Shown here: one piece after another, positions 1-12,851 of the stretch | Layout: the number at the start of each line of letters is the position of its first letter | Numbering within the stretch: the first letter of the stretch is position 1 | Source: a virus | Strand: one strand, 5' to 3' | Length of the DNA: 12,851 nucleotides | Virus genome (UHGV): UHGV-0102871 | Made by a program: the position numbers and the translations under genes | The notes under the pieces: generated by a model | Database searches by the model: none | Seen by the model: only the letters and a program-made list of their open reading frames with translations | Told to the model about the DNA's origin: nothing

Positions 1-131
1 CTTAACGAAAAGCAGGTGGCAGCATGAGATACGGATCTGTTTGCTGCGCAGCGCCGGTTCTTCTATGGGCATCGCCGCAGCTCCACTGCAAACAGATCCG
101 TATCTCATGCTGCCACCTGCTTTTCGTTAAG
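1..131. repeat. Perfect 44-bp inverted repeat (arms 1-44 and 88-131) around a 43-bp non-palindromic spacer; left arm touches the window edge
   Basis: Reverse complement of 1-44 is identical base-for-base to 88-131, checked manually. The right arm covers the 3' end and stop codon of the minus-strand 52-aa ORF. Confidence 0.85.
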
Positions 132-263
132 TTCTTCAGCCAGTCGTTGCGCCTTCAGTGGGTTGGTAACGACTTCACCCCACGGCAGCAACCATCCGTT
201 TTTCTCTTTGAGCCAGGGAAGGCGCACCGCGCCAACCCTGATGTCGTCGTGAGCGTGAGTCAT
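105..263 (-). CDS. Small hypothetical phage protein (52 aa), last gene seen in the leftward operon
   Basis: ATG at 263-261 overlaps the TGA stop of the upstream 142-aa gene (ATGA coupling). Manual translation gives MTHAHDDIRVGAVRLPWLKEKNGWLLPWGEVVTNPLKAQRLAEELNEKQVAA. Its 3' end lies inside the right arm of the inverted repeat. Below the ORF-track size cutoff; no homology recognised. Confidence 0.4.
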   Translation of the reverse strand: MTHAHDDIRVGAVRLPWLKEKNGWLLPWGEVVTNPLKAQRLAEELNEKQVAA

Positions 264-688
264 AGGATGGACTCCATTTCGTCGATGTAGAGGCCCTGAG
301 CAATCAGGCGGCTACGGCGGGCGGCACGGGCTATGCACTCCTGCCGTCTACCTTCCTGCGATTGCTCAATGGCGCGCCGGGTGAACAGGCGCGATTTGCC
401 CTGCGGCGTCACAACCTTCGGCTTCGTGACCAGGTCGAAAGTCCGGTCGCAGATGCCGTCCCCGTTGATCCACTTTTCCGACTCAACGATCTGCGCTATC
501 TGTCCGGAGCCGCGGGTAATACCGTTGGCTACCCGGTTAAACTCGATGAGCGTTACGCCAAACTTCTCAGCGATTTCGCTGCCGGTTACCGGGCGGCCGC
601 GCGTCTGAATCATCCAGATAACGCGCTCACGAAGGCCGGAGAATTGCCCGGTGCGCCCTGGCCTGCGGTAAAATGGTGTGCGTTTCAT
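260..688 (-). CDS. Hypothetical phage protein (142 aa), possible HTH DNA-binding protein
   Basis: ORF-track ORF. ATG at 688-686 overlaps the exo stop (ATGA). Basic protein with an HTH-like stretch (TGSEIAEKFGVTLIEFNRV). Function not recognised. Confidence 0.6.
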   Translation of the reverse strand: MKRTPFYRRPGRTGQFSGLRERVIWMIQTRGRPVTGSEIAEKFGVTLIEFNRVANGITRGSGQIAQIVESEKWINGDGICDRTFDLVTKPKVVTPQGKSRLFTRRAIEQSQEGRRQECIARAARRSRLIAQGLYIDEMESIL

Positions 689-1302
689 GCTGCACGCTCT
701 GTGATTTTCTGAATTTCCGATTCCAGATCTGCAAGGAAGCTCTTAACCTCAGATTCGATTTCGCGCGCCAGCTCTTCATCGAAATGAATCCGCTTCTTGA
801 AATAGGCGAGGTCAGGCGGCAGGCGATCATCGAAACTAACGAAATCACACCATTTCCGCCCGGTGCACATCATCTGTGCATGCATTTGCAGCATGTACTG
901 GCGCTTTGGCTCACCAGTTTTCAGCGTTTCAAGATGGGTCCAGGTGTTGGGGCATTTGATTTCGATAAGCCCGTCGTCGTTGACAAGTCCGTCCGGGCTG
1001 GCTGCGAATCCGGGTATGGTTGGGTGATCGATGAGCCCAACTTCAGTGATTGCCGCATTGAACTCATTCAGCGCGTACATTTCGCGTGCCACTGGCTCAA
1101 GTTCAGTGCCGCGCATCATCGCGGCATTCGAAAACCCTTCCTCCAGCTTCCCGGTCAGCCGTTGGCAAATCAGCTCGGCCATGTAGTTCTGGCGGCTGGT
1201 GGAGTAGCCCGACTTAGTCCGGGCCATGACATCAGCCAGGCGACTGGCTGTGACCTTGCCGCAGCGCGCAGCAAACCATTCAGGGGTGCGTTGCTCTATC
1301 AT
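685..1302 (-). CDS. exo: Lambda Exo / YqaJ-family 5'-3' exonuclease (205 aa)
   Basis: Translation carries YqaJ/lambda-Exo hallmarks (WFAARCGKVTASR; SPDGL...GLIEIKCP; YMLQMHAQMMC). Sits immediately downstream of bet with ATGA stop/start overlap, as in the lambda Red operon. Confidence 0.85.
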   Translation of the reverse strand: MIEQRTPEWFAARCGKVTASRLADVMARTKSGYSTSRQNYMAELICQRLTGKLEEGFSNAAMMRGTELEPVAREMYALNEFNAAITEVGLIDHPTIPGFAASPDGLVNDDGLIEIKCPNTWTHLETLKTGEPKRQYMLQMHAQMMCTGRKWCDFVSFDDRLPPDLAYFKKRIHFDEELAREIESEVKSFLADLESEIQKITERAA

Positions 1303-2045
1303 TCAGCCTCCGTCTCTGCGACATTGACAGGTTCGGCGTTGTCGACAGCAAGACTCATGTCATACATGCGTCGTTTCTCAACTGCGCCGATCACCTGTTT
1401 CTCTTCGGCGCTCAGCGCCACCCAGAACTCCTGATACTTAACGGTTCCAAGGCGCGCGGCGGACTCACCTTTTGCGATCAGTTCCGGGCGGCGGCTATCT
1501 GATTCATGGCCCGCATGAACCTCTGCCGTTGTTCCTTCAATTACTCGCTCTGCCTCGTCCTGGTCGAAGATGCCAGCGAAACCAAAGGCCAGACGCGCGC
1601 ACTGGATCAGCGTCTTGTGGCGAAGCATGCGGGTAGGGTGGGACTGCCATGGCTGAGTGTTGCGTTTGCACTCTCCCATGTACTCGGTGACGATGGTCGG
1701 GTGCTTACGGTCTTTGCGGTAAATCTTGCAGGTACACGCGCCTTCCTCCTTGTCGTAAGAGAACTCCATGCCGTCAAACTGAGGATGCTCGTTGATAATG
1801 CGAGCCCATCCATCAACGCCGACGACCGGGACAATCCCGCCTTTATCTGGGAATGCGTAAATCTCTTTGGTCCATGGGTTCAGGCCGTACTGGTTGGCGA
1901 CGATCAACAGGGCTGTAAACTGCTCGTCCGTGACGTTGCCACCTTTGAACGCTGTATTCTTCAGCGTATTCATCAGGTCTGTACCGGCATCCATGCCGAG
2001 GCGTGCGGCCAGTTTCCCGGCCATGGTGGAAAGTGCAGTACTCAT
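1299..2045 (-). CDS. bet: Bet (RecT/Red-beta family) single-strand annealing protein
   Basis: From the internal Met, MSTALSTMAGKLAARLGMD... LIVANQYGLNPWTKEIYAFPDK... PVVGVDGW... RMLRHKTLIQCARLAFGFAGI closely parallels lambda Bet as recalled. Start placed at ATG 2045-2043 with GAGGGA Shine-Dalgarno 7 nt upstream; the ORF-track ORF extends to 2060. Confidence 0.9.
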   Translation of the reverse strand: MSTALSTMAGKLAARLGMDAGTDLMNTLKNTAFKGGNVTDEQFTALLIVANQYGLNPWTKEIYAFPDKGGIVPVVGVDGWARIINEHPQFDGMEFSYDKEEGACTCKIYRKDRKHPTIVTEYMGECKRNTQPWQSHPTRMLRHKTLIQCARLAFGFAGIFDQDEAERVIEGTTAEVHAGHESDSRRPELIAKGESAARLGTVKYQEFWVALSAEEKQVIGAVEKRRMYDMSLAVDNAEPVNVAETEAE

Positions 2046-2063
2046 TGTTAAATCCCTCAAAAA

Positions 2064-2348
2064 TTAAAACGGGCAGCCGGTACGGTGTTCCCAGTCGTAT
2101 TCCGCCTGGGCGTAAGCAACTACCGAAATGAAATCGTTGTAGGCCTCGCCAGCTTTATCGCTGCGAAGCCCTTCGTATGGGCTGGAGTCTATCGGGATCG
2201 TGAAGTGGAAGAGGCCGGACGGCTCTTTAGGCATCATGTCGATGATTTTCTGCGCCCGGTCGTCGATCCACTTCTCTTTCTCGTCGGTGATCTGTTGCTC
2301 AGCCCAGCGCCGATCTTCGATGCGGTCGTAAGTGAGGTATGCGTTCAT
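2064..2348 (-). CDS. gam: Gam-like host-nuclease (RecBCD) inhibitor, short form (94 aa)
   Basis: N-terminus MNAYLTYDRIEDRRWAEQQ resembles the internal-start region of lambda Gam ([21 protein letters not shown], recalled). Position directly upstream of bet matches gam-bet-exo order. TGAGG Shine-Dalgarno upstream. Confidence 0.75.
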   Translation of the reverse strand: MNAYLTYDRIEDRRWAEQQITDEKEKWIDDRAQKIIDMMPKEPSGLFHFTIPIDSSPYEGLRSDKAGEAYNDFISVVAYAQAEYDWEHRTGCPF

Positions 2349-2355
2349 GGTTGCC

Positions 2356-3327
2356 TCAGTAATGAATTTTCGCGCAGGGGATCAGGTTATCTTTCAGAGC
2401 GGTAAGCACTTCGATAGCCTGCTCGCGGGTTAAGCTGGTTTGGCTGGTGAGCGCGTTAACGATGTTGGTGCCGACCGTCTTGCGGTGCTTAACGTCAGCT
2501 TCACGCTTTGCCTGCTCATCGGCGAGGCGCTTCTCTTCGGCCAGGCGGGCATCTTCGGCCTGTTTGGCCTTCAGGCGCTCGGCTTCAACCGCCGCGGCTT
2601 TTTCGCGTTCCGCCCGGGCTTCCGCTTCCTGCTTCTCGCGAGCTGCACGCTGTTCCGCTTCGACGCGCTGGCGCTCCGCCAGTTCAGCGCGGGCTTTCTC
2701 TTCGGCTTCACGGCGCGCTGCGGCTTCAATCTCCGCTTTGTGCTTCGCTTCGGCATCGCGGCGGGCTTGTTCTGCCGCTTCCTGTTTCAGCCGCTCATCA
2801 CGTTCACGCTGAGCCTGTTCCGCCAGACGGCGCTGCTCTTCGCGGTCACGGTCAAAATCCTTGTTCATCAGTAGAGCCATTTCGTGGTCCGCTTCGAACT
2901 TGGCAGCCAGCTCCTGATCGAACCTGATGTTCATCTCCAGCGCTTCGGCGTGCATCGCGTTCATGGCTTCTTCAGCCTTAATGCGTTCCTGCTCGGCTTC
3001 CCATTCGGTGAGTGGGCGGCGGGTCGCATCGCGCAGCTCGTCGCAGGCATCAACGAATCGCTTAATTTCGGCCTCAGCCGGACGCACAGCCTCTTTCAGG
3101 CGCTTCAGGTACTCACGGCCCGGCTTTTCGATTGCCGTCTTGCTGCGGGACACCTGCGCTGCCAGAGAGGCAACACGGTCACGGCCTTTCTTCGTGGACA
3201 GGTCCGGCACTTCGTTTACAGCCTGGCGGATTTGCTCAAGGTACGCGTCAAGGCCGCCCGCTACGTAAAGCACTGGGGCCTGTTCCGGCTTGATTTCGAT
3301 GACAGTTAAGTCCGTTACTTCGCTCAT
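2356..3327 (-). CDS. Hypothetical phage protein with long charged E/R/A/K-rich coiled-coil segment (323 aa)
   Basis: ORF-track ORF with AGGAGA Shine-Dalgarno before ATG 3327. Globular N-terminal ~110 aa, then ~160 aa of low-complexity heptad-like repeats (AEQAQRERDERLKQEAAEQARRDAEAKHKAEIEAAARREAEEKARAELAERQR...), then a ~50-aa C-terminus. The several plus-strand ORFs overlapping it are composition artefacts. Confidence 0.7.
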   Translation of the reverse strand: MSEVTDLTVIEIKPEQAPVLYVAGGLDAYLEQIRQAVNEVPDLSTKKGRDRVASLAAQVSRSKTAIEKPGREYLKRLKEAVRPAEAEIKRFVDACDELRDATRRPLTEWEAEQERIKAEEAMNAMHAEALEMNIRFDQELAAKFEADHEMALLMNKDFDRDREEQRRLAEQAQRERDERLKQEAAEQARRDAEAKHKAEIEAAARREAEEKARAELAERQRVEAEQRAAREKQEAEARAEREKAAAVEAERLKAKQAEDARLAEEKRLADEQAKREADVKHRKTVGTNIVNALTSQTSLTREQAIEVLTALKDNLIPCAKIHY

Positions 3328-3397
3328 GGTTTCTCCTGAAATTTGGATGTGCAGATCCCGCCCGCGTAATGCCAGGCCGATCGGTTGAATAGGGTGG

Positions 3398-3595
3398 TTA
3401 CTGCTGCGCGATGGATTTCGCCGGGAACTCGCCGTTGCGGATGATGCTTTCTACCGGCCAGCACTCAGCTGACACTTTCTGCTCTGTAGCTGCCAGGCTG
3501 CATTCCTGCTGGCTGTCGTAAACGCCGAGAATGACATCCTGATAATCACCGTTGGTCATTGCCACGGTCAGGACGAGTGCGAATAAAGTTTCCAT
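3398..3595 (-). CDS. Small hypothetical protein (65 aa) with hydrophobic N-terminus, in the kil-like position
   Basis: Internal ATG (3595-3593) of the 83-aa ORF-track ORF overlaps the stop of the upstream 42-aa ORF (TGATG coupling). Sequence METLFALVLTVAMTNGDYQ... has a hydrophobic N-terminus. The longer 3398-3649 form cannot be excluded. Confidence 0.45.
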   Translation of the reverse strand: METLFALVLTVAMTNGDYQDVILGVYDSQQECSLAATEQKVSAECWPVESIIRNGEFPAKSIAQQ

Positions 3596-3723
3596 CAGTG
3601 AAGAGTCCTCCCGATGGCGACGGCGTAAAGGCGTTTTGCTTCTTCCCACGCCGGAGCATTGCGATGGAGCACCGCGAACGACGCGAGCCGTTGGGCCTCT
3701 CTGATCTGCTGCTGGTTTACCAT
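3595..3723 (-). CDS. Small hypothetical protein (42 aa), in the cIII-like position
   Basis: Manual translation: MVNQQQIREAQRLASFAVLHRNAPAWEEAKRLYAVAIGRTLH. Strong Shine-Dalgarno (AAGAGGAA) 3-4 nt before the ATG; stop overlaps the next start. Not in the ORF track (below size cutoff). Function unknown. Confidence 0.4.
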   Translation of the reverse strand: MVNQQQIREAQRLASFAVLHRNAPAWEEAKRLYAVAIGRTLH

Positions 3724-3864
3724 GATTTCCTCTTGGCCTTATCGCGGCGAACGGAACGGTTAATACAAGACTTCAACGCATTTATTCAGTGTTTCAATGG
3801 GCGGTGGATGGCCGCCGGTTGTCATAAATGGGCAGACTCGAAAATCTGCCTATGTATGGCCGAT

Positions 3865-3884
3865 AAAAAACCCGCCGGAGCGGG
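3865..3884 (-). terminator. Candidate intrinsic terminator immediately after the 222-aa gene (minus-strand RNA CCCGCUCCGGCGGG + UUUUUU)
   Basis: Plus strand reads AAAAAA-CCCGCCGGAGCGGG-TCA, where TCA is the TGA stop of the 222-aa gene. On the minus strand this is a 5-bp GC stem with 4-nt loop followed by a U6 tract. Confidence 0.55.
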
Positions 3885-4553
3885 TCATTCATTCTTTGGT
3901 ATGCCGCAAAGGGCGTTTAGCGTTTCAACGGGAATGGCAAGTGCGGTGCTGGTCGCTTCACGGCGTTCCACCTCAGGCAAATATGGCACTGCCTCAGGCC
4001 ACATCTCAGCCAGTTTTTTAACAGTTGAGACTTTGGTTAGAGCACCTTTAACCTGCAATTGGAAGGCATCAACTTCATCGTAAAGAACGTTGATGGTTAC
4101 CGTCGATTCAGTGAGTCGGTCGTGTAATTTTCCAACTTTCTTCAGCGTGCTGTAACTTTCAGGAACGAAACCCGAATCAATTACAGGCGCGAAGGAAGCT
4201 CCGAAGAACAGGTCGCTTTCAAGATCGTGCTTACCAATATGTTTTCCACGGTGGCGATAGCGATGATCCAAACCGTTCCTGGCTAATTCGTGATACTCAC
4301 CATTAATAATGACCTTTAAAGTTGCAGTTTTAGCGCCGACCTGCATCTTGATGAAGGAGTTATCTTTGAAATCTTCCCGAGCCTTAGTTATTTGCTCATC
4401 GCTAGTGTTTTCCTGCTTGAGCAATGCCTGTCGAATTTCTTCAACAATTTTCGCCCTCTCATTAACCGCAGCTTTCGCTTTCTCAAACAATGGGGATGCG
4501 AGAAGCAGGTTATGGCATAGCTGATTTTTAATTTCGTTGTTAAGACGAATCAT
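3885..4553 (-). CDS. AT-rich orphan gene (222 aa), unknown function; first gene of the leftward operon, in the sieB/ral position
   Basis: ORF-track ORF with GAGGGT Shine-Dalgarno 7 nt before ATG 4553. Visibly lower GC than flanking genes (by eye, not computed). Soluble-looking, no recognised domain. Bracketed by a ~400-bp leader upstream and an intrinsic terminator downstream. Confidence 0.75.
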   Translation of the reverse strand: MIRLNNEIKNQLCHNLLLASPLFEKAKAAVNERAKIVEEIRQALLKQENTSDEQITKAREDFKDNSFIKMQVGAKTATLKVIINGEYHELARNGLDHRYRHRGKHIGKHDLESDLFFGASFAPVIDSGFVPESYSTLKKVGKLHDRLTESTVTINVLYDEVDAFQLQVKGALTKVSTVKKLAEMWPEAVPYLPEVERREATSTALAIPVETLNALCGIPKNE

Positions 4554-4969
4554 TGACTTACCCTCTGTCGTTACCCGCTGATGCGGGAGAAATGCTTTGG
4601 CGATGTGGTAGGTGGGAGACCCATTTCGACCCGATTCGGCCTACTTATCTTCGGCAATAGCTCCTCGGGCCTCGCCGCTTTACGTGCGACATATTCCCGT
4701 CCATGAACCCTTCACCACATCCCATAACATTCCCTGTATTGGTCAGCGCCAACTCCCTGCCAGTGTTGCCCGTTCTCACGCCGTTCTCGCTCTCGCGTGG
4801 GGATACTCTCTCACCGACCGGATCGCACCCGGTGATACAGCACGTTTACGTGTAGGGGTCTTAACAGGTCATTGACGCTGTAAATCTGCATGTTGTTAAA
4901 AAGCAGGCGACTTGCTGTCCGCCGCTGGCTAACTTCGCTCAGCTGTCGATGTTTCGTTTCGATGGGGTA

Positions 4970-5048
4970 AATTTAGCGTGATGCTAAATTATGCGCAATA
5001 GCAAAATGCTAAATTGTTGAATGGTTTTATTTAGCGTATTGATTAATA
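4970..5048 (-). promoter_or_regulatory. oL-like operator cluster and probable pL region: three sites with half-site ATTTAGC-N5-GCTAAAT
   Basis: 4970-4990 is a perfect 21-bp palindrome (AATTTAGCGTGATGCTAAATT). Two degenerate copies at ~4996-5015 (AATAGCAAAATGCTAAATT) and ~5028-5048 (ATTTAGCGTATTGATTAAT). Same half-site as the cI/cro intergenic operators. Exact -35/-10 not resolved. Confidence 0.55.
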
Positions 5049-5085
5049 AGCGATTAAAAATTTACAGCGAAGGAATTCGGGACGT

Positions 5086-5109
5086 AAAAAAGCCCGCGCG
5101 ATGGCGGGC
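5086..5109 (-). terminator. Intrinsic terminator downstream of the repressor gene (minus-strand GCCCGC-CAUCGC-GCGGGC + UUUUUU)
   Basis: Plus strand reads AAAAAA-GCCCGC-GCGATG-GCGGGC, 20 nt past the cI-like stop. On the minus strand this is a 6-bp GC stem followed by a U6 tract. Confidence 0.65.
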
Positions 5110-5129
5110 TTGAGGGGTTTTGCGTGAGG

Positions 5130-5807
5130 TTATGGGATGTTTAGTATTTTGGCATCAACCACAACGCCGATGATTTTGCAGTTTCCATTAATTTCTAGCA
5201 TTGGATATGCGGGGTTAAGGGGCTTTAGGAAGCGTCTGCCGGCATCGATTACAAGCTTCTTAAAGGTCGCTTCGTTATCGCCTTCTAGCTTCGCGACAAC
5301 CAGCTTTCCGTTGCGCGGCTCGACTTCAGGATCAACAAGTATCGCTGCTCCCTCGGGTATGCTCAGTCCAGCCGGGGAGGTCATAGAATCCCCTTTAACG
5401 TCCAGCCAGAATGAATCTTCTGAGCAGTCAACAGTCGTGTCATACCAGCGATCTATCGCTCTTCGGTGATAAGGTTCTACAGCTTCCATCCATTGCCCCG
5501 CGCTTACCCAGCTGATTACAGGATAACTTCCTTTTGTCTCGTTCAGTCCTCGAAATGCAACGTTCGAAGGTTCTTCACTGGCGTGTAAAACATCCATCCA
5601 GCCAAAAGGCAGATCAAGCGCAGTTTCAATTTTGCGAGCCATCTTATCGCCGATATTGCGATGAGGGTTTGGTCCCAGTAGCTGGCTAAGCGCAGCCGGA
5701 CTTGTCTCGATGAGCTCGGCAAACTGCGCTTTGGTCATTCCAGACTCGTGCTGACGCTTCTCGTACAGCGCTTCCAGGTTGGCTTTTCTGATTTCTTTAT
5801 TTTCCAT
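5130..5807 (-). CDS. cI: cI-like prophage repressor (HTH N-domain plus LexA/S24 peptidase C-domain), 225 aa
   Basis: C-terminal domain carries the S24 Ser/Lys dyad context (DVKGDSMTSPAG ... ATFKKLV) and LexA-like strands (GAAILVDPEVEPRNGKLVVAKL; KIIGVVVDAKI). N-terminus is HTH-like. Start set at the internal ATG 5807-5805 (MENKEIRK...) just left of the operators; the ORF-track ORF extends to 5924. Confidence 0.85.
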   Translation of the reverse strand: MENKEIRKANLEALYEKRQHESGMTKAQFAELIETSPAALSQLLGPNPHRNIGDKMARKIETALDLPFGWMDVLHASEEPSNVAFRGLNETKGSYPVISWVSAGQWMEAVEPYHRRAIDRWYDTTVDCSEDSFWLDVKGDSMTSPAGLSIPEGAAILVDPEVEPRNGKLVVAKLEGDNEATFKKLVIDAGRRFLKPLNPAYPMLEINGNCKIIGVVVDAKILNIP

Positions 5808-5824
5808 ACCTGCATTGTTACTGC

Positions 5825-5893
5825 TTTTAGCAAAATGATAAATGTGCAAATTGCTAAATGATGCTTGCGTAGTATTTAGCATAACGCTAAACT
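5825..5893. promoter_or_regulatory. oR-like operator cluster with divergent pR/pRM region between cI and cro
   Basis: Sites TTTTAGCAAAATGATAAAT (5825-5843) and ATTTAGCATAACGCTAAAC (5874-5892, 13/14 palindromic) share the oL half-site. Candidate pR: -35 TTGCGT (5865-5870), 17-bp spacer, -10 TAAACT (5888-5893); the stronger operator overlaps the spacer and -10. GGAGA Shine-Dalgarno precedes the cro-like ATG at 5924. Confidence 0.55.
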
Positions 5894-5923
5894 CCAAATC
5901 AAACGACTCACCCGGAGACACCA

Positions 5924-6157
5924 ATGAGCACTGAACTACACCGCTGGCGCAAGGCCGCCACTACCGACGAATGGGCGCAGCTCGCAAAGTTGGCTAACAC
6001 GACGCCAGGTTACCTGGACCAGATCGCCTACGGAAATCGCCGGGCATCTCCAGAAATGGCATCTGCTATCGAGAAAGGCACGAAGAATTTTCACCGCCAG
6101 GCTCCGGTCCTAAAAGAAAGCCTGGTATTCGCATCGCCGCGTGATACTGCGGCCTAA
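5924..6157 (+). CDS. Cro-like HTH regulator, YdaS-family (77 aa)
   Basis: Divergent from the repressor and first gene of the rightward operon. Motif GYLDQIAYGNRRASPEMASAIEKGT matches the YdaS-type Cro-like HTH pattern as recalled (YL.Q...G.R..SPEMA.AIEK.T). Confidence 0.7.
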   Translation: MSTELHRWRKAATTDEWAQLAKLANTTPGYLDQIAYGNRRASPEMASAIEKGTKNFHRQAPVLKESLVFASPRDTAA

Positions 6158-6174
6158 CCACGAAAGGGAAAGCA

Positions 6175-6717
6175 ATGCATTCACTTGCGTATCAACACAA
6201 TACCGGAATACACCCGGGAGCGATGATAAACCGCGCTCAAGCTAAAGCGACGCCGGACCACGAAAAGATCCGCGATGCGGTCCGTGCCTGGTCATCGGCG
6301 CTGGATAATCAGGACGTGGTGTCAGCGCTGATCATCAACGAATACCGGGAGCAGGGCGGGACCGCCATCAGCTTTCCGGACGACATCAGCCGGGCGCGCC
6401 AGAAGCTGTTCCGCTTCCTGGATAACCGCTTCGACTCTGAGCAGTACCGCGAGAACGTGCGCCAGCTGACGCCCGCAATCATGGCCGTTTTGCCGCTGGA
6501 GTATCGCCATCGACTTCTTCCAGAGGACAGTTTTATGTCCCGCTTAGCTCGACTTGAGAAAGAAACGAGCGAGGCGAAAGTGGCCGTTGCGATGAACGCC
6601 CCGCGTCACCAGAAGCTCAAGGAACTCAGTGAGGGGATTGTAGAGATGTTCCGTGTCGACCCGGATCTGACCGCGCCGCTGATGGCTATGGTCACTTCGA
6701 TGTTGGGGGTTATGTGA
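6175..6717 (+). CDS. YdaT-family protein (180 aa) in the cII-equivalent position
   Basis: AGGGAAAG Shine-Dalgarno upstream. Motifs IINEYREQGG... and TPAIMAVLPLEYRHRL resemble Rac prophage YdaT-family proteins as recalled. Follows the YdaS-like gene as in Rac. Confidence 0.6.
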   Translation: MHSLAYQHNTGIHPGAMINRAQAKATPDHEKIRDAVRAWSSALDNQDVVSALIINEYREQGGTAISFPDDISRARQKLFRFLDNRFDSEQYRENVRQLTPAIMAVLPLEYRHRLLPEDSFMSRLARLEKETSEAKVAVAMNAPRHQKLKELSEGIVEMFRVDPDLTAPLMAMVTSMLGVM

Positions 6718-6953
6718 TGGGAAGTTTCAAAAATGGCGAAAGCCAGTCTGCGCGAACAGAACTGGCCTTCAGATGCAAATCGTGTGCACTCATTGCAGGA
6801 GGAATAATGGCAAAAAATCCACGCTATTACCATACCTCTGTACATAAAAACATAACCCGCGACCGCTTCATCCGCTCGGTTAACCCGATTGTGGCAGAGA
6901 AGATGCGCGCCATCCTGGAAGAACTGAAACGTAAGGAGAGTGGCCGTGGGTAA
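6717..6953 (+). CDS. Small hypothetical protein (78 aa; possibly 48 aa from ATG 6807)
   Basis: ATG 6717 overlaps the YdaT-like stop (TGATG). An in-frame ATG at 6807 has a strong AGGAGG Shine-Dalgarno. The 3' end overlaps the start of the O-like gene. No recognised homology. Confidence 0.4.
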   Translation: MGSFKNGESQSARTELAFRCKSCALIAGGIMAKNPRYYHTSVHKNITRDRFIRSVNPIVAEKMRAILEELKRKESGRG

Positions 6954-7845
6954 CGTATCCAATTTAGCCGAAGCCAGAGAGGCCAGAAGGCTCCAGAAAC
7001 CGCGCACGAATGACGGTAAGGGGTTTGCCTTGCTGCACCGTAAAATTATGGATGTGCCGTTCTACAAGGACGCTGAGGCGGCTCATTTATGGGTTCACAT
7101 GCTCCTGCGTGCTAATCACGAACAGACACTGGTATCTACTGATGTTGGCGATGTGATCTGCGAGCGCGGAGAGTTCATCACCGGGCGAAACACACTGGCA
7201 ATGGAAACGGGTTTGACCGCTGATCGCGTTAAATCCCTTCTCCGTAAATTCCAGAATCTGGGCATGATCACCACCAAATCGAACAACCGTTTTACTGTTC
7301 TAAAAGTGGTCAAATATGACGAATATCAGTCAAATTTTTGTCCAGCAGATGTCCAGCCAGCGTCCAGCCCAAACATAGTCGTACCAATGCCTGCGGAGGT
7401 GGAGTGTCCAGCCGATGTCCAGCCAGTGTCCACAGATAACAATATATTAAATAACTTACTACCTAACGGTAGTAAGTATGTCGCAAATGACCAGAAACCC
7501 GCTGAAGAGAAAAAGTCTCGTTTGTCATGCGATGAAGTATGGCAATGCCTGAAAGACGAACTGCCTGAAGCACGGGGATGGAGATGCCTCACTGATGAGC
7601 GACGCAATCTGATCCGCACATTCTGGGGTAAGGCTAATAAGATTGCCCGCAACCTGGACGGCAAGCCGATGGATATGGACGGTTTCAGAAGCTATCTGCG
7701 TTACATCGCTCAGAACTGCCGCTGGATGCTTGAAGACCGACCAGACCAGAAGTCTGGGAAGACCTGGCGCCGCATGAAATTCGATAAGTTCCTGACCGAA
7801 AAGCTCTACATCGAAGTGCGCGAGGGGGATCGTGATGACCGCTGA
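6940..7845 (+). CDS. Replication initiator (lambda O-like, winged-helix N-domain) containing the candidate origin
   Basis: Directly upstream of and overlapping the DnaB-like helicase gene. Basic HTH-like N-terminus. Iterons and an AT-rich tract lie inside the coding sequence, as in lambda O. GTG start at 6940 or 6946 (AAGGAGA Shine-Dalgarno); exact start uncertain. Confidence 0.7.
   Translation: MAVGNVSNLAEAREARRLQKPRTNDGKGFALLHRKIMDVPFYKDAEAAHLWVHMLLRANHEQTLVSTDVGDVICERGEFITGRNTLAMETGLTADRVKSLLRKFQNLGMITTKSNNRFTVLKVVKYDEYQSNFCPADVQPASSPNIVVPMPAEVECPADVQPVSTDNNILNNLLPNGSKYVANDQKPAEEKKSRLSCDEVWQCLKDELPEARGWRCLTDERRNLIRTFWGKANKIARNLDGKPMDMDGFRSYLRYIAQNCRWMLEDRPDQKSGKTWRRMKFDKFLTEKLYIEVREGDRDDR
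7339..7435. repeat. Iteron array (GTCCAGC core; two ~31-bp units of three iterons at ~11-bp spacing) followed by an AT-rich tract 7437-7480: candidate replication origin
   Basis: GTCCAGC at 7340, 7351, 7362, 7406, 7417, plus degenerate GTCCACA at 7427. Unit 7339-7369 is near-identical to 7405-7435. Encodes the repeated peptide CPADVQPASSP / CPADVQPVSTD. Immediately followed by AATATATTAAATAACTTACTACCTAACGGTAGTAAGTAT. Confidence 0.6.
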
Positions 7846-9268
7846 TTTCATGGCTGTACCACAAAACCTCGAAGCAGAGCAGAGCGTTATCGGTGGCCTG
7901 CTGCTGGATGATGACAACAGCGAGCGAGTCCAGAAGGTTCTGGCGATGCTCAAGCCTGAATCGTTCTACAGCCGACCTCACCAGCTGATCTTTGCCGAGA
8001 TGCGCCAGATGTTCCGCGACAACAAGCCAGTCGATGGTCTGACATTGTTCGACGCGCTCGAAGGCAAAGGGCTCGCGGAGCAGGTAGGTGGCTTTGCTTA
8101 CCTGGCGGAGATCGCCAAGAACACTCCCAGCGCTGCAAACATCGTGGCATACGCTGCGTCAGTCCGGGAAGCCGCAATGGAGCGCTACGGTATCAGCCGC
8201 CTGACCGAAGCTACTGAGCTGCTGTATTCCCGCAATGGCATGAGCGCCACGCAGAAGTACGAGGCCATTCAGGGTATTTTCACCCAGCTCGCAGACCATT
8301 CAAAAACCGGTAGTCGCCGTGGGTTGCGGTCGTTCGGCGAGGTTATGGATGACTGGGTAGCAGATCTGGAGAAACGCTTTGCCCCTTCAGGCGAACAGCG
8401 CGGCATGAGCACCGGCATCCCGTCACTCGACCGGCTGCTGGCGCCGAAAGGTCTGGTTAAAGGCTCTCTGTTCGTGATTGGCGCAAGGCCAAAGATGGGC
8501 AAGACAACCCTGTACGGTCAGATGGCGATCAACTGCGCGGTTCGTGAGAAAAAGCCAGCGCTGATGTTCAGCCTCGAAATGCCGGGCGACCAGATCCTCG
8601 AAAAACTGGTTGGTCAGAAGTCTGGAGTTAACCCGAGCATTTTTTACATGCCAGCCACGGATGACGCCGATGACCAGTACCAGGGCGATTACGACGGCGA
8701 CTTTAAGAAGGCGATCGCCACCGCCGGGCGATTGAGTGAAATCGACATGCTGTACATCGACGATACTCCTGGCCTGTCACTGGCGCACATCGTTAGCGAA
8801 AGCCGCCGAATCAAGCGCGAGAAGGGCTGCGTAGGAATGATTTTGGTTGACTACCTGACTCTGATGACCGCCGAAAAAGCCGACCGTAATGACCTTGCCT
8901 ACGGGATGATCACCAAAGGGTTGAAGAACCTCGCTAAAGAGCTTGGCTGCGTCGTCGTGCTGCTGACCCAGCTCAACCGCGAACTGGAGAAGCGAGTGAA
9001 TAAACGCCCGTTACCGAGCGATTCCCGCGACACAGGACAGATTGAGCAGGACTGCGACTACTGGGTTGGTATCCACCGGGAAGGTGCTTTCGATGACAGC
9101 GTGCCGCCGGGAGAAACCGAGTTAATCCTGCGACTCAATCGCCACGGCAGTACCGGAACGGTTTATTGCAATCAGATCAACGGGGCAATTTACGACACAG
9201 ACCAGCAGGCCGCCGCCGCAGAACGCCGCGGGCGTGAGCAGCAGCCGAAAAAGAAAGGGGGATTCTGA
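7835..9268 (+). CDS. dnaB: Replicative DNA helicase, DnaB family (P22 gp12-like)
   Basis: DnaB N-terminal domain signature (LEAEQSVIGGLLLDD...) and Walker A motif GARPKMGKTTL. Length ~478 aa. Start overlaps the O-like gene's 3' end; start set at ATG 7835, with GTG 7832 also possible. Confidence 0.9.
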   Translation: MTADFMAVPQNLEAEQSVIGGLLLDDDNSERVQKVLAMLKPESFYSRPHQLIFAEMRQMFRDNKPVDGLTLFDALEGKGLAEQVGGFAYLAEIAKNTPSAANIVAYAASVREAAMERYGISRLTEATELLYSRNGMSATQKYEAIQGIFTQLADHSKTGSRRGLRSFGEVMDDWVADLEKRFAPSGEQRGMSTGIPSLDRLLAPKGLVKGSLFVIGARPKMGKTTLYGQMAINCAVREKKPALMFSLEMPGDQILEKLVGQKSGVNPSIFYMPATDDADDQYQGDYDGDFKKAIATAGRLSEIDMLYIDDTPGLSLAHIVSESRRIKREKGCVGMILVDYLTLMTAEKADRNDLAYGMITKGLKNLAKELGCVVVLLTQLNRELEKRVNKRPLPSDSRDTGQIEQDCDYWVGIHREGAFDDSVPPGETELILRLNRHGSTGTVYCNQINGAIYDTDQQAAAAERRGREQQPKKKGGF

Positions 9269-9612
9269 TGACCATAACAATCCGCGGGCAGATTCTTGCA
9301 GCCCTGCGTAACAACCCGGGCCTGAACAGTGCTCGTATTGCCAGCATGATCGGCATGACCACCAAAAAGATTTCCGGCCCGTTAAGTACGTTGTTTGCAG
9401 ACGGCCTGATCGAGTTCGAAGGCAAGCACGGACAGCGGCTTTATCGGCTGACCGATTACGGCATGAAATACGCACCAGAAACAATCCCGGCTATGCCGAA
9501 GGGAAATTCGAAGCTGGTGCAGCGTACAGAGGCAAACGTGATCTGCCAGGAGTGCCGCAACAGCGCGGCGATGAGAAGGGTATTGATGGTTTGGGGGAGG
9601 GTAGGGGTATGA
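9268..9612 (+). CDS. Hypothetical winged-helix DNA-binding protein (114 aa)
   Basis: ATG overlaps the helicase stop (TGATG). HTH-like segment SARIASMIGMTTKKISGPLSTL. Function unknown. Confidence 0.55.
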   Translation: MTITIRGQILAALRNNPGLNSARIASMIGMTTKKISGPLSTLFADGLIEFEGKHGQRLYRLTDYGMKYAPETIPAMPKGNSKLVQRTEANVICQECRNSAAMRRVLMVWGRVGV

Positions 9613-9806
9613 AAATCGAAGATATCAAAAACGTTGCGGTGTTCTTCAATATGAACGGCAAGACAGTAGCGTTACGAATGGATGCTGAGCAGAAGCGGAT
9701 CGTCGCATTAATGGCGCTTAACACGGCTGATGCTCGGGCAGAACTGATTGAAGTGCCGCACATGACTTTACCAGCAGACCCAGCCATGGAGGAGGCCGCC
9801 CAATGA
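9609..9806 (+). CDS. Small hypothetical protein (65 aa)
   Basis: Internal ATG 9609 overlaps the upstream stop (ATGA) and has a GGAGGG Shine-Dalgarno. The ORF-track ORF begins at 9552 but overlaps the upstream gene. Confidence 0.45.
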   Translation: MKIEDIKNVAVFFNMNGKTVALRMDAEQKRIVALMALNTADARAELIEVPHMTLPADPAMEEAAQ

Positions 9807-10090
9807 GCAACATCGACAAACAGGAGCTGCGCCTAACAGCAGAAAAGGCGAAAGATAACTTCATGCCGAACTTCATGGTACCAACTCGCGATTTACTGGC
9901 GCTGCTGGATGAGCTGGAAGCCGCAGAGAAGCGAATTGCTGAGCTGGAGGCGCTAGGGCGTTGCGTGAAGCAGTTCTCAGAGTTCCAGATTTGCCATTAC
10001 GGTGCCACTGAGGACTATGCGAAGGGCTATATCGACTGTCAGAACAATTACAACAAAGTGCTGTTCGCCGCAGCCGGTAAAGGAGAGTGA
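9803..10090 (+). CDS. Ea22-like family hypothetical protein (95 aa)
   Basis: ATGA coupling with the upstream gene and GGAGGAGG Shine-Dalgarno. N-terminal coiled-coil LLALLDELEAAEKRIAELEA is typical of ead/Ea22-like phage proteins (recalled). Confidence 0.55.
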   Translation: MSNIDKQELRLTAEKAKDNFMPNFMVPTRDLLALLDELEAAEKRIAELEALGRCVKQFSEFQICHYGATEDYAKGYIDCQNNYNKVLFAAAGKGE

Positions 10091-10092
10091 GC

Positions 10093-10380
10093 ATGTCAGT
10101 TGAACTCGAAGATAAACGCCGTAGTGGGCAGCGTATTCCCGGCCTCGGACTCGCTAATGGGACGTGGTTTGCAGTTCTGGATATTCCAGGCATGGGAAAG
10201 CTTATCAACAATCAGCATACCAATGACCCGCTTGATGTGACGCCAGCCAAAGCGAAAAAGATGGCAGAGATTGTCGAGGCATGGACACCACCGGATGGTT
10301 GGTCTGGCAGCGAGCAAGAAAAAATGAAGAGTTATATCGTCGAATTTCTTCGCGGTTGCAACGGTTTTAGGAGCTACTAA
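10093..10380 (+). CDS. Hypothetical phage protein (95 aa)
   Basis: ATG 10093 with AAGGAGAG Shine-Dalgarno ~7 nt upstream; the ORF-track ORF starts at GTG 10087. No recognised domain. Confidence 0.5.
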   Translation: MSVELEDKRRSGQRIPGLGLANGTWFAVLDIPGMGKLINNQHTNDPLDVTPAKAKKMAEIVEAWTPPDGWSGSEQEKMKSYIVEFLRGCNGFRSY

Positions 10381-10383
10381 CCC

Positions 10384-11022
10384 ATGACATTAACCAAAGA
10401 ATGGCTCCTGAAAACTATCGCGGAGCTTGAAGAAGAGCGCGCTGCTGTGCCCGGCGCTGTAAACGAAGATGCAGCACGGCCGCTGGCGGCGATGAAGTTG
10501 GCGCTGACATCGCTCGAAGCGGAGCCTGTGGCGTGTCCGAAATGCAATGATACTGGAATGGCTGATAGTGGAGGAGTTCAACCATGGGGGGAGCCAATAA
10601 GCGTCCCATGTGATTGCACCGCCCAGCCAGCGCTGGCAGTTGATGCTGATGATAATTTTTATTCATGGTTCGGTAGAGAATGGAATGATCATTATCAGCA
10701 AAACCAATACACCACGGCAGCTAAACAGATGCTTGGTGTTATGGCCGAATCTGCGTGGAAAGCTGGTCGGCGCGCCGCCATGCTTCAGGGTGCCGAACTT
10801 GTAAGTAATCGTGATGAGTTGCCGGATGGTTGGGTGGCTTGCAGTGAGCGGATGCCGGAGAAAACTGATGAAGTTTTGTGTGCCAAAGAATTCGATGGTC
10901 CAGGTGATTGGCGCCAAAAGGTTGGTTATTACTTAGCGGGGAAATGGACGGTGTATAGCGCATCATGGACGCCGACCCACTGGATGCCACTGCCAGCAGC
11001 ACCGCGGCAGGAGCTGAAGTGA
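10384..11022 (+). CDS. DUF551-domain phage protein with Ea22-like N-terminus (212 aa)
   Basis: N-terminal coiled-coil (WLLKTIAELEEERAA). C-terminal W-rich domain ending THWMPLPAAP, resembling DUF551 (recalled). Followed by an intrinsic terminator. Confidence 0.65.
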   Translation: MTLTKEWLLKTIAELEEERAAVPGAVNEDAARPLAAMKLALTSLEAEPVACPKCNDTGMADSGGVQPWGEPISVPCDCTAQPALAVDADDNFYSWFGREWNDHYQQNQYTTAAKQMLGVMAESAWKAGRRAAMLQGAELVSNRDELPDGWVACSERMPEKTDEVLCAKEFDGPGDWRQKVGYYLAGKWTVYSASWTPTHWMPLPAAPRQELK

Positions 11023-11058
11023 CGAACAAGATGACGAGAGTTACCATAGATATAAATC

Positions 11059-11083
11059 AAGGCCCTTAGGGGCCTTTTATTCT
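11059..11083 (+). terminator. Rho-independent terminator (AAGGCCC-TTAG-GGGCCTT + TTTTATTCT)
   Basis: Perfect 7-bp stem with 4-nt loop followed by a T-rich tract, 37 nt after the DUF551 gene stop. Confidence 0.65.
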
Positions 11084-11115
11084 ATGATAAACGGACTTTG
11101 TTTGAGAGTGACGCC

Positions 11116-11442
11116 ATGAAGTCCAAGAAGCTAAATGCTGAGCAGCAATACAAATTAGACCTTGAATTGGTCAAGAAGAAGCCTGCGAACCGGACCGAGG
11201 CAAAAGCCCATTTGGCCGCACAGTTACGAATCAGCAAGTACAAGACGCAGACCTCTTCCAAAATCCGCGTAGGCAGTTTTAAGGGGCGGAAGAAGGTACA
11301 TTTCAGTAAGGCGGAACAAGCAGCCAGGGCAGCACTAAATAAAGCAAATGCCATTAGATTTTCCGAAGGGGAGGTCGAGTCCGTCGATACGGATAGAATC
11401 TCAGAAAGTAACAAACGCTGGCGCGGGAGAACTGCTGACTAA
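11116..11442 (+). CDS. Highly basic Lys/Arg-rich hypothetical protein (108 aa); first gene of the accessory cassette
   Basis: ATG 11116 with weak GAGAG Shine-Dalgarno; the ORF track starts at TTG 11098. Very basic composition ([10 protein letters not shown]...[13 protein letters not shown]...[12 protein letters not shown]...[10 protein letters not shown]). No recognised family. Confidence 0.5.
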
Positions 11443-11696
11443 TGTCTGACTGGAATATTGCTGCAAAGCCGCAGGAAGAACGCGACAAGGTCAACGTTGA
11501 CCTGGCAGCCTCCGGCGTAGCCTACAAAGAGCGCCTGAACATGCCGGTTATCGCTGAGGTGGTGATGCGTGAGCAGCCCGAGCATTTGCGTGATTACTTC
11601 CTTGAGCGTCTGAAGTTTTATCGCGAGAAGTCGATAGATTTACCAAGGGCATCCGATCCGCGGTACATGGAAATGGCTGATTCTAATAAAAAATAA
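11442..11696 (+). CDS. Hypothetical protein (84 aa), translationally coupled to the basic protein
   Basis: TAATG stop/start overlap with the upstream gene. No recognised family. Confidence 0.5.
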
Positions 11697-11747
11697 GCCC
11701 TAACGTGTTGATGACCTTATCAGACCTAAACAGGAGGTTTTTCTAAA

Positions 11748-12287
11748 GTGATTAATATCATTGTTGATTCCAATGCTTGGAATTTTTTACATGTGAGTGG
11801 GATCTCCTTAAGCAACGAGCTTCTTAGCGATTATAACTTTCAGATAACATTAGAGGTGTCTCGTGAATTGCAGGAGTTAGTAGGCAAGGAAGGGAAGGAA
11901 GCTCTTTATGAATTCTTTGTAAGTGAGACTCAGTCGCTTGAAGAGCCCTTATGCTATTTTGGTTTTTACAATGAGTCAGTGCCTGCTGATGAACAGCGGT
12001 TTGGTGGATTTGGTGTTGGCGGGTTCGCATCTGTTCATCAAGATGATTATTTTCAGAAAACATTCCGCCAAATAAAATCATCAAAGCGTGGTATTTATTA
12101 TGGCAATGAAGCTGACATGCTGATCGGGTCAAGAGGAATTGGGAACACTTTCATACTAACAGAAGATAATAATAAGTCAGGCCCGATGAAAGAGGCTGAG
12201 AACACTATCTTTGTTTCAAGAAAATTTCCTATGACTGTGGAGCAGTTTAAGGAATATCTTGATCTTGAAACCTCAAAAACTCTTTAG
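11748..12287 (+). CDS. AT-rich PIN-like domain protein (179 aa), putative nuclease
   Basis: GTG start with AGGAGG Shine-Dalgarno ~10 nt upstream. Markedly AT-rich versus neighbours (by eye). N-terminal MINIIVDSNAWNFL, acidic E36/E40, D99/D100, and C-terminal NEADMLIGSRGIGNTFILTEDNN fit the four-acidic-residue PIN pattern (hDTN ... DalIAA ... lvTxD). Confidence 0.55.
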   Translation: MINIIVDSNAWNFLHVSGISLSNELLSDYNFQITLEVSRELQELVGKEGKEALYEFFVSETQSLEEPLCYFGFYNESVPADEQRFGGFGVGGFASVHQDDYFQKTFRQIKSSKRGIYYGNEADMLIGSRGIGNTFILTEDNNKSGPMKEAENTIFVSRKFPMTVEQFKEYLDLETSKTL

Positions 12288-12363
12288 TTACTGCGCTTTG
12301 ATTTTTCATAATCACTCCGCCATAATCATGTCATCGGAGCCTGAACAACTCCGGTGACTTCTT

Positions 12364-12387
12364 CGCATTTAAGGGGACTTAAATGCG
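12364..12387. promoter_or_regulatory. Perfect 10-bp inverted repeat with 4-nt loop (CGCATTTAAG-GGGA-CTTAAATGCG) upstream of the NinB-like gene
   Basis: Seen directly in the sequence. Not followed by a T-tract, so more likely a protein-binding site or RNA hairpin than an intrinsic terminator. Confidence 0.3.
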
Positions 12388-12474
12388 ACCACAATCTGAA
12401 CTCATCGCCTTGTCACAGATGCAGACATGCACCTGCGATTTTCTGCATTCTGCGGTTTCCGTCAAGGAGGCCGT

Positions 12475-12851
12475 ATGATTATCCCCAAAGACGGCATCAA
12501 GCTACACCGTGGAAATCTTGGTGCTATCACTCAGCATCTGAAGCCACTTCTCGAAAACGGTGAGTGCTTCCGGCTCCAACTCAAAGACTGGCGCGAGAAG
12601 AGAAGCCTTTCACAAAATAGTCTGAGCCACGTTTGGTACAAGGAAATAAGCGACTACCTGATCAAGTCTGGGCGCACTGACGCAACGCCTGCATGGGTAA
12701 AGCGAAACCTCAAAAAAACTTATCTGGGTTATGAAGAGGTTGAGTACACCGATTTCGTCACCGGAATTAAGACGATTGAATTAGAACTCCGCCACACGTC
12801 CGATCTGGACCTGCCAGTTTGCCGAACAGCACAACGCGGTGCCATTCAGTC
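12475..12851 (+). CDS. ninB: NinB/Orf-family recombination protein (putative), 3'-truncated by the window end
   Basis: AAGGAGG Shine-Dalgarno 4 nt before ATG 12475. Manual translation MIIPKDGIKLHRGNLGAITQHLKPLLENGECFRLQLKDWREKRSLSQNSLSHVWYKEISDYL... carries the RSLSQN...W motif resembling lambda NinB (RSLDQNRKLW, recalled). Open to the end of the window. Confidence 0.5.
   Translation, partial: MIIPKDGIKLHRGNLGAITQHLKPLLENGECFRLQLKDWREKRSLSQNSLSHVWYKEISDYLIKSGRTDATPAWVKRNLKKTYLGYEEVEYTDFVTGIKTIELELRHTSDLDLPVCRTAQRGAIQ

Follow-up and report, generated by a model that had tools for sequence, protein, structure and literature searches.

A perfect inverted repeat at one end of a phi80-like prophage contig is very probably a fold-back artefact

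The first 131 nucleotides of the virus genome UHGV-0102871 raise the question of whether a perfect inverted repeat found there belongs to the phage, as the trace of a duplicated gene end, an inversion or a functional hairpin, or was added to it during sequencing and assembly. We use "the window" for the whole stretch of DNA analysed, 12,851 nucleotides. As a preliminary description had reported, positions 1-44 are the exact reverse complement of positions 88-131, with a 43-nt spacer at 45-87:

Positions 1-44, no strand: the tail that we read as a fold-back; exact reverse complement of 88-131, with 1-42 foreign to the locus.
Positions 88-131, no strand: right arm; native sequence, the template or source of the fold-back.

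This repeat lies far beyond chance expectation. The next-longest inverted repeat in the window (at a spacing under 400 nt) is 11 nt, and across 30 shuffled windows the longest inverted repeat had a mean of 11 nt and a maximum of 15 nt; if mismatches are allowed, the arms reach 57 nt at 91% complementarity. Folded as single-stranded DNA, positions 1-131 have a predicted energy of -60.2 kcal/mol (z = -17), with none of 200 shuffles as good. The native sequence at 43-131 forms no unusual hairpin, its fold z-scores lying between +0.4 and +0.9 relative to shuffles, and the hairpin therefore depends entirely on the added 44 nt. The dinucleotide GC at 43-44 is common to the native sequence and the fold-back, constituting a junction microhomology of 2 nt. 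Also seen in the fold is a native 6-nt repeat, GCTGCG/CGCAGC, at 43-48 and 76-81.

The right arm spans the stop and last eight codons (LNEKQVAA*) of a minus-strand 52-aa open reading frame at 105-263, again as first described, such that the copied part amounts to only 8 codons, a stop and 17 nt. The left arm, read in frame 1 of the plus strand, translates as the same LNEKQVAA*. From this peptide, the preliminary description had deduced a plus-strand reading frame entering from outside the window; the peptide stands, and the entering reading frame falls away once the source of the sequence is considered. Tracing the rare window protein DUF551, which occurs on 13 contigs, we found that the window is the entire contig ena:ERZ1744965:NODE_607_length_12851_cov_199.300719 of ENA assembly ERZ1744965, with a name format that we take to be SPAdes or metaSPAdes style. 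The matching locus in our set (L021, NODE_607_length_12851) comprises 12,468 bases, all of which match window 384-12851, and its gene coordinates agree as well. Window position 1 is thus the end of a contig. As window and contig coincide, a plus-strand reading frame has no outside sequence from which to enter, and homology past 44 nt cannot be shown because the contig stops there.

The sequence beside the repeat is the immunity and early region of a phi80-like lambdoid E. coli prophage. Its leftward, minus-strand genes encode a LexA-family/S24 repressor, an Nmad5-family protein, a 323-aa agt-like protein, GamL, Bet/RecT, a lambda-type exonuclease, a 142-aa protein and the 52-aa DUF1317 protein, and its rightward genes a YdaT-like protein, a replication protein (299 aa), a DnaB-like helicase, DUF551, a DNA polymerase III theta homologue and a YbcN-like protein. 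Two native coding sequences meet at the repeat:

Positions 105-263, minus strand: DUF1317 family gene (PF07026), 52 aa, native; its last 8 codons and stop lie within the right arm.
Positions 43-108, minus strand: 5' end of dam (DNA adenine methylase, PF02086), native; codons 1-22, translated as MRYGSVCSGAAAMPIEEPALRS.

The dam start codon (108-106) overlaps the DUF1317 stop, and right-arm positions 88-108 together with the spacer make up the first 22 dam codons. This overlap, together with the identity of the window with a whole contig, goes beyond what had been noted before. The arrangement is a common one. Relatives annotate the 52-aa gene as "DUF1317 family protein", and contigs encoding the identical protein fall in 508 blocks of the collection; in 10/10 independent contigs that encode it, the overlap with dam is arranged in the same way. 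In NCTC9040 and EC2001, the dam start and the DUF1317 stop overlap as ATGA. In NCTC9040, 23AR0998, EC2001 and phage phi80, a DNA adenine methylase gene lies directly downstream of the block, followed by DUF4060, xis (in some relatives) and int, and relatives in general carry a 282-301-aa methylase, annotated or called, directly downstream of DUF1317. The underlying locus is an ordinary, well-populated phi80-like early-left operon.

The window departs from this pattern at position 43. To the left of it, every relative reads ...GGGCGCTGCCAGC, corresponding to dam codons 23 onward (WQRPFLKW...), while the window carries the reverse complement of the DUF1317 gene end instead. The native continuation into dam is spelled ...CTGCCAGC followed by TGCGCAG..., and the native join can also be written as ...GCTGCCAGC followed by TGCGCAGCG.... 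In the window, dam is cut after codon 22 and its frame then runs on as nonsense (...ALRS followed by KQIRISCCHLLFVK).

Base-by-base comparison places the boundary precisely. Window 43-131 is 100% identical to EC2001 and is identical in 7/11 of the loci compared in this way (L004, L005, L006, L008 and L012-L014), as well as in the further locus L027; among the remaining 4/11, three have one base difference, and in NCTC9040 the match begins only at position 92 because its dam 5' end is of another kind. In all 11/11 loci sharing the DUF1317 gene end, dam sequence is found left of 43. Locus L027 (GCA_054662655.1) is 99.85% identical over window 43-9621 (13 mismatches), and its collinearity with the window ends exactly at 43, the sequence beyond carrying an intact 294-aa dam, DUF4060, xis and int. 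Similarly, L006 and L014 are 99.9% identical over 43-3406 and both then continue into dam. The three most similar metagenome contigs (L016, L018 and L019) reach 99.92-99.99% identity over 12.4 kb; these were compared from window position 384 on, and the left flank was judged on L027, L006 and L014. Relatives have one DUF1317 gene, then dam, and neither the fold-back junction nor an inverted copy was found in any of 24 related E. coli and phage loci (L001-L014 and L026-L035).

The 5' end of dam is itself mosaic among these phages. The NCTC9040 methylase (301 aa) begins with MNYGFVSVCVEQFNEAVKLPPAHNPASRIWQRPF... (L001, 3900-4017) and the phi80 type found in the window (294 aa) with MRYGSVCSGAAAMPIEEPALRSWQRPF..., the mosaic breakpoint lying near window position 92. 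The annotation of phi80 itself lists dam as a frameshifted pseudogene. In strain 23AR0998, the place of DUF1317, flanked by dam and the 142-aa gene, is taken by a gene for a 354-aa "DGQHR domain-containing protein" (L002, 4063-5127), an exchange of cargo at the same mosaic joint. Loci L028 and L032 (approximately 3700-4100), in other respects nearly identical prophages, match the window only from 643, with L032 reaching 99.89% identity over window 643-12813; they are without dam, DUF1317 and the 142-aa gene, DUF4060 being followed directly by the exonuclease gene, and represent a natural deletion variant of the same region.

These comparisons bear directly on whether the hairpin could have a function, either as a terminator or regulatory stem-loop ending the leftward early operon or as the hairpin telomere of a linear phage. 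Its great predicted stability (-60 kcal/mol) and its place at the end of the sequence speak for such a role, but the left arm occurs in no relative, the native sequence folds no better than shuffles, and the stem-loop would lie inside two overlapping coding sequences. The stem-loop of an intrinsic terminator is conserved in relatives, a pattern that this locus does not show. A telomere fares no better, given that the relatives are integrated prophages with an integrase and that dam, DUF4060, xis and int lie beyond this point; furthermore, a 43-nt loop and a site inside dam are unlike a telomere-resolution site. Hairpin telomeres of the N15 type combine a terminal palindrome that has no or a minimal loop with a protelomerase, in contrast to the structure seen here, and no protelomerase-like gene is present among the genes called on the contig. 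We regard a functional hairpin of either kind as extremely improbable.

The junction was also sought in much larger collections. An exact 30-mer spanning positions 44 and 45 had no match in the genome, viral and metagenome contig collections. A shorter 20-mer across the junction, chosen to avoid a known T/G polymorphism, gave 21 matches, all of them in unrelated taxa with flanks only 25-30% identical and none in viral contigs; a scan of about 10^12 bases is expected to yield such matches by chance, and we regard them as such. Not one of the 5,426 complete E. coli genomes covers positions 1-131, whereas 73 of them match from position 43. Independent assemblies of this sequence, or of one nearly identical to it, thus do not share the junction.

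Such a distribution leaves little room for a heritable event, in which homologous or site-specific recombination would have duplicated the DUF1317 gene end, alone or within a larger segment, and placed the copy in inverted orientation to the left of the native one. The repeat itself is the only direct support for this possibility, to which may be added that phi80 has a Pin-type invertase elsewhere in its genome and that L006 has a resolvase-family gene. Against it, the contig ends 44 nt into the arm with no sign of a longer copy, dam is cut at codon 22, and the structure is absent from the 5,426 complete genomes and the 24 related loci, including lineages that are 99.85-99.9% identical. Moreover, no invertase or resolvase family is recorded for the genes called on the contig from position 384 onward, the 43 nt between the arms are too short for an invertible segment, and the arms flank only coding sequence. 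Hin, Gin and Pin systems pair an invertase with inverted sites and show both orientations among relatives, and a genuine inverted paralogue has a coding copy that extends beyond a few dozen bases and is kept in relatives; this locus shows neither pattern. A heritable duplication or inversion is hence very improbable.

Two of the three readings offered in the preliminary description are lost as a result. An inverted duplication of the gene's 3' end finds no paralogue or inverted copy in the 24 loci, the 5,426 genomes or the three collections, and a recombination or inversion junction is contradicted by its absence from relatives, genomes and collections and by the interruption of a conserved dam by the left arm. 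The comparison with related elements that had been proposed there found the structure in none of them, and the biological readings fail on it. An assembly artefact at a contig start, the third suggestion, is the sole reading to have gained support, position 1 being a contig end; the earlier interpretation thus holds in its artefact option and not in its duplication and inversion options.

The opposite end of the contig provides an independent view of how its termini were formed, as it too carries a short stretch of foreign sequence:

Positions 12811-12851, no strand: foreign tail, 41 nt of chromosomal ssb, attached by a blunt join (0-nt microhomology) within the phage ybcN-like gene.

Positions 12812-12851 are 100% identical to ssb1 in 5,413/5,426 E. 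coli genomes, while all other assemblies of the phage match the window only to about 12810-12813, within the ybcN-like gene. The join between ybcN and ssb occurs in none of the complete genomes searched. A whole-window search had "matched" nearly every E. coli genome, and it did so because of this ssb tail. We also considered a fold-back at the right end and rejected it, since no part of the window matches the reverse complement of the tail, which consists of ssb. An independent trans-chimera of similar size at the opposite end implies that the contig ends carry chimeric tails, and the two observations together show that both ends carry chimeric tails of approximately 40 nt.

We therefore consider it very probable that the left arm, positions 1-44, arose as a technical fold-back chimera, was retained where a contig from a short-read de Bruijn graph ends, and is not a feature of the phage genome. 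The geometry is that of a fold-back, running as the reverse complement of 131 to 88 and then as 45 to 131, and the arm sits at the physical end of an assembled contig. With regard to a paralogue, an inversion or a regulatory hairpin, the repeat almost certainly implies nothing biological.

Joins of this kind have been described in sequencing libraries. Sonication and enzymatic library preparation with end repair yield reads in which a sequence is fused to the inverted complement of a stretch close to it (PMC10908179). The left end of the contig resembles the cis-inverted (fold-back or strand-switch) chimeric reads of the PDSM model in that work, in which an original strand is joined to the adjacent inverted complement of the same locus, and it shares with them a short distance (the 43-nt loop), a read-sized extent (44 nt) and uniqueness. 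It differs in two respects: PDSM reads switch at pre-existing near-perfect inverted repeats or palindromes, whereas the switch point here shares only 2 nt, and the PDSM cases are reads, whereas the fold-back here is seen in an assembled contig (PMC10908179). The join between ybcN and ssb resembles the ligation chimeras of a second study (PMC3411829), having 0-nt microhomology and connecting loci for which 5,413 genomes show no linkage; artefacts of this class thus do occur in the contig. That study simulated trans ligation chimeras in silico and used a microhomology threshold to filter them out. Ligation chimeras join unrelated fragments, in contrast to the left-end event, which is intramolecular or inverted (PMC3411829).

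As to how the technical fold-back would have arisen, several origins may be envisaged. A strand with its 3' end at 43-45 could have snapped back at the GC of 88-89 and been filled in during end repair; the same strand end may instead have annealed at GC 88-89 to the opposite strand of a sister fragment before fill-in; or two fragments may have been ligated in inverted orientation. A snap-back primed at the 6-nt repeat GCTGCG/CGCAGC was rejected: it predicts a boundary at 48/76 and an A at 42, and the window has a T there, with arms ending at 44/88.

One or a few such chimeric library molecules would suffice to supply the junction k-mers, with the contig then extended into a dead-end tip. If the tails are shorter than k, no k-mer would lie wholly in the foreign part, so that the tip would neither merge back into the graph nor be recognised as a chimeric connection. 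The tail lengths of 44 and 41 nt and microhomologies of 2 and 0 nt are consistent with k = 55, which is the usual, default largest k of metaSPAdes and exceeds the length of either tail. The literature offered nothing directly relevant on SPAdes-specific hairpin ends, and the assembler-level step is one that we infer. SPAdes normally clips low-coverage tips, and the persistence of two tails on a contig with approximately 199x coverage speaks against the artefact reading. A second point against it is that template switching during replication also gives rise to fold-back joins of short microhomology in vivo, such that the junction molecule could predate the library.

This last point leads to the possibility that the junction records a real but rare molecule, produced in a minority of genomes when a nascent strand switched template at GC (43-44 and 88-89) during phage or prophage replication. 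Perfect arms, a 43-nt loop and a 2-nt microhomology match the geometry of template switching, the phage encodes recombination functions of its own (exo, bet/RecT and GamL), and the rate of spontaneous inversion in bacterial cultures is high enough to be measured (PMC3411829). In vivo fold-back inversions formed by template switching share this geometry, with an inverted duplication, a short unique spacer and microhomology of zero to a few nucleotides; they differ in being represented by many reads and inherited, whereas the structure here consists of the 44 terminal bases of one contig with a companion chimera. However, in vitro processes give the same geometry (PMC10908179), and in Salmonella, the inversions confirmed by experiment shared 12 bp or more at their junctions, far above the 2 nt of microhomology seen here, with shorter ones indistinguishable from ligation chimeras (PMC3411829). 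Furthermore, no replication model for this locus explains the blunt trans-chimera with ssb at the other end, and no related genome has kept the junction. We thus think such a rare molecule unlikely, and if it did exist, it would be a dead end with dam destroyed and not a genome feature. A version of the same event in which a microhomology-primed template switch in a replicating, induced phi80-like prophage gave inverted-dimer (palindromic) phage DNA centred in the dam 5' end and abundant enough for assembly at approximately 200x appears similarly unlikely.

A technical origin of the left arm, as preferred above, has consequences for quality control. Neither the 44-nt arm, nor the "plus-strand ORF entering from outside", nor the apparent truncation of dam should be annotated, or counted, as biology. 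The results further suggest that, in contigs of ERZ1744965 and of similar metaSPAdes assemblies, terminal stretches shorter than k are best trimmed or masked ahead of any scan for repeats at the termini, hairpins, att sites or fused genes.

Two genes further inside the window deserve mention in their own right. At 3885-4553 on the minus strand, between the repressor and the recombination genes, lies a gene for an Nmad5-family "putative nucleotide modification protein" (PF18757), which is present in only some relatives, with an N-antiterminator or other cargo found in its place elsewhere. On the plus strand, positions 11442-11696 encode the 84-aa homologue of DNA polymerase III theta (PF06440), which carries this name at NCBI and is found on 261 contigs.
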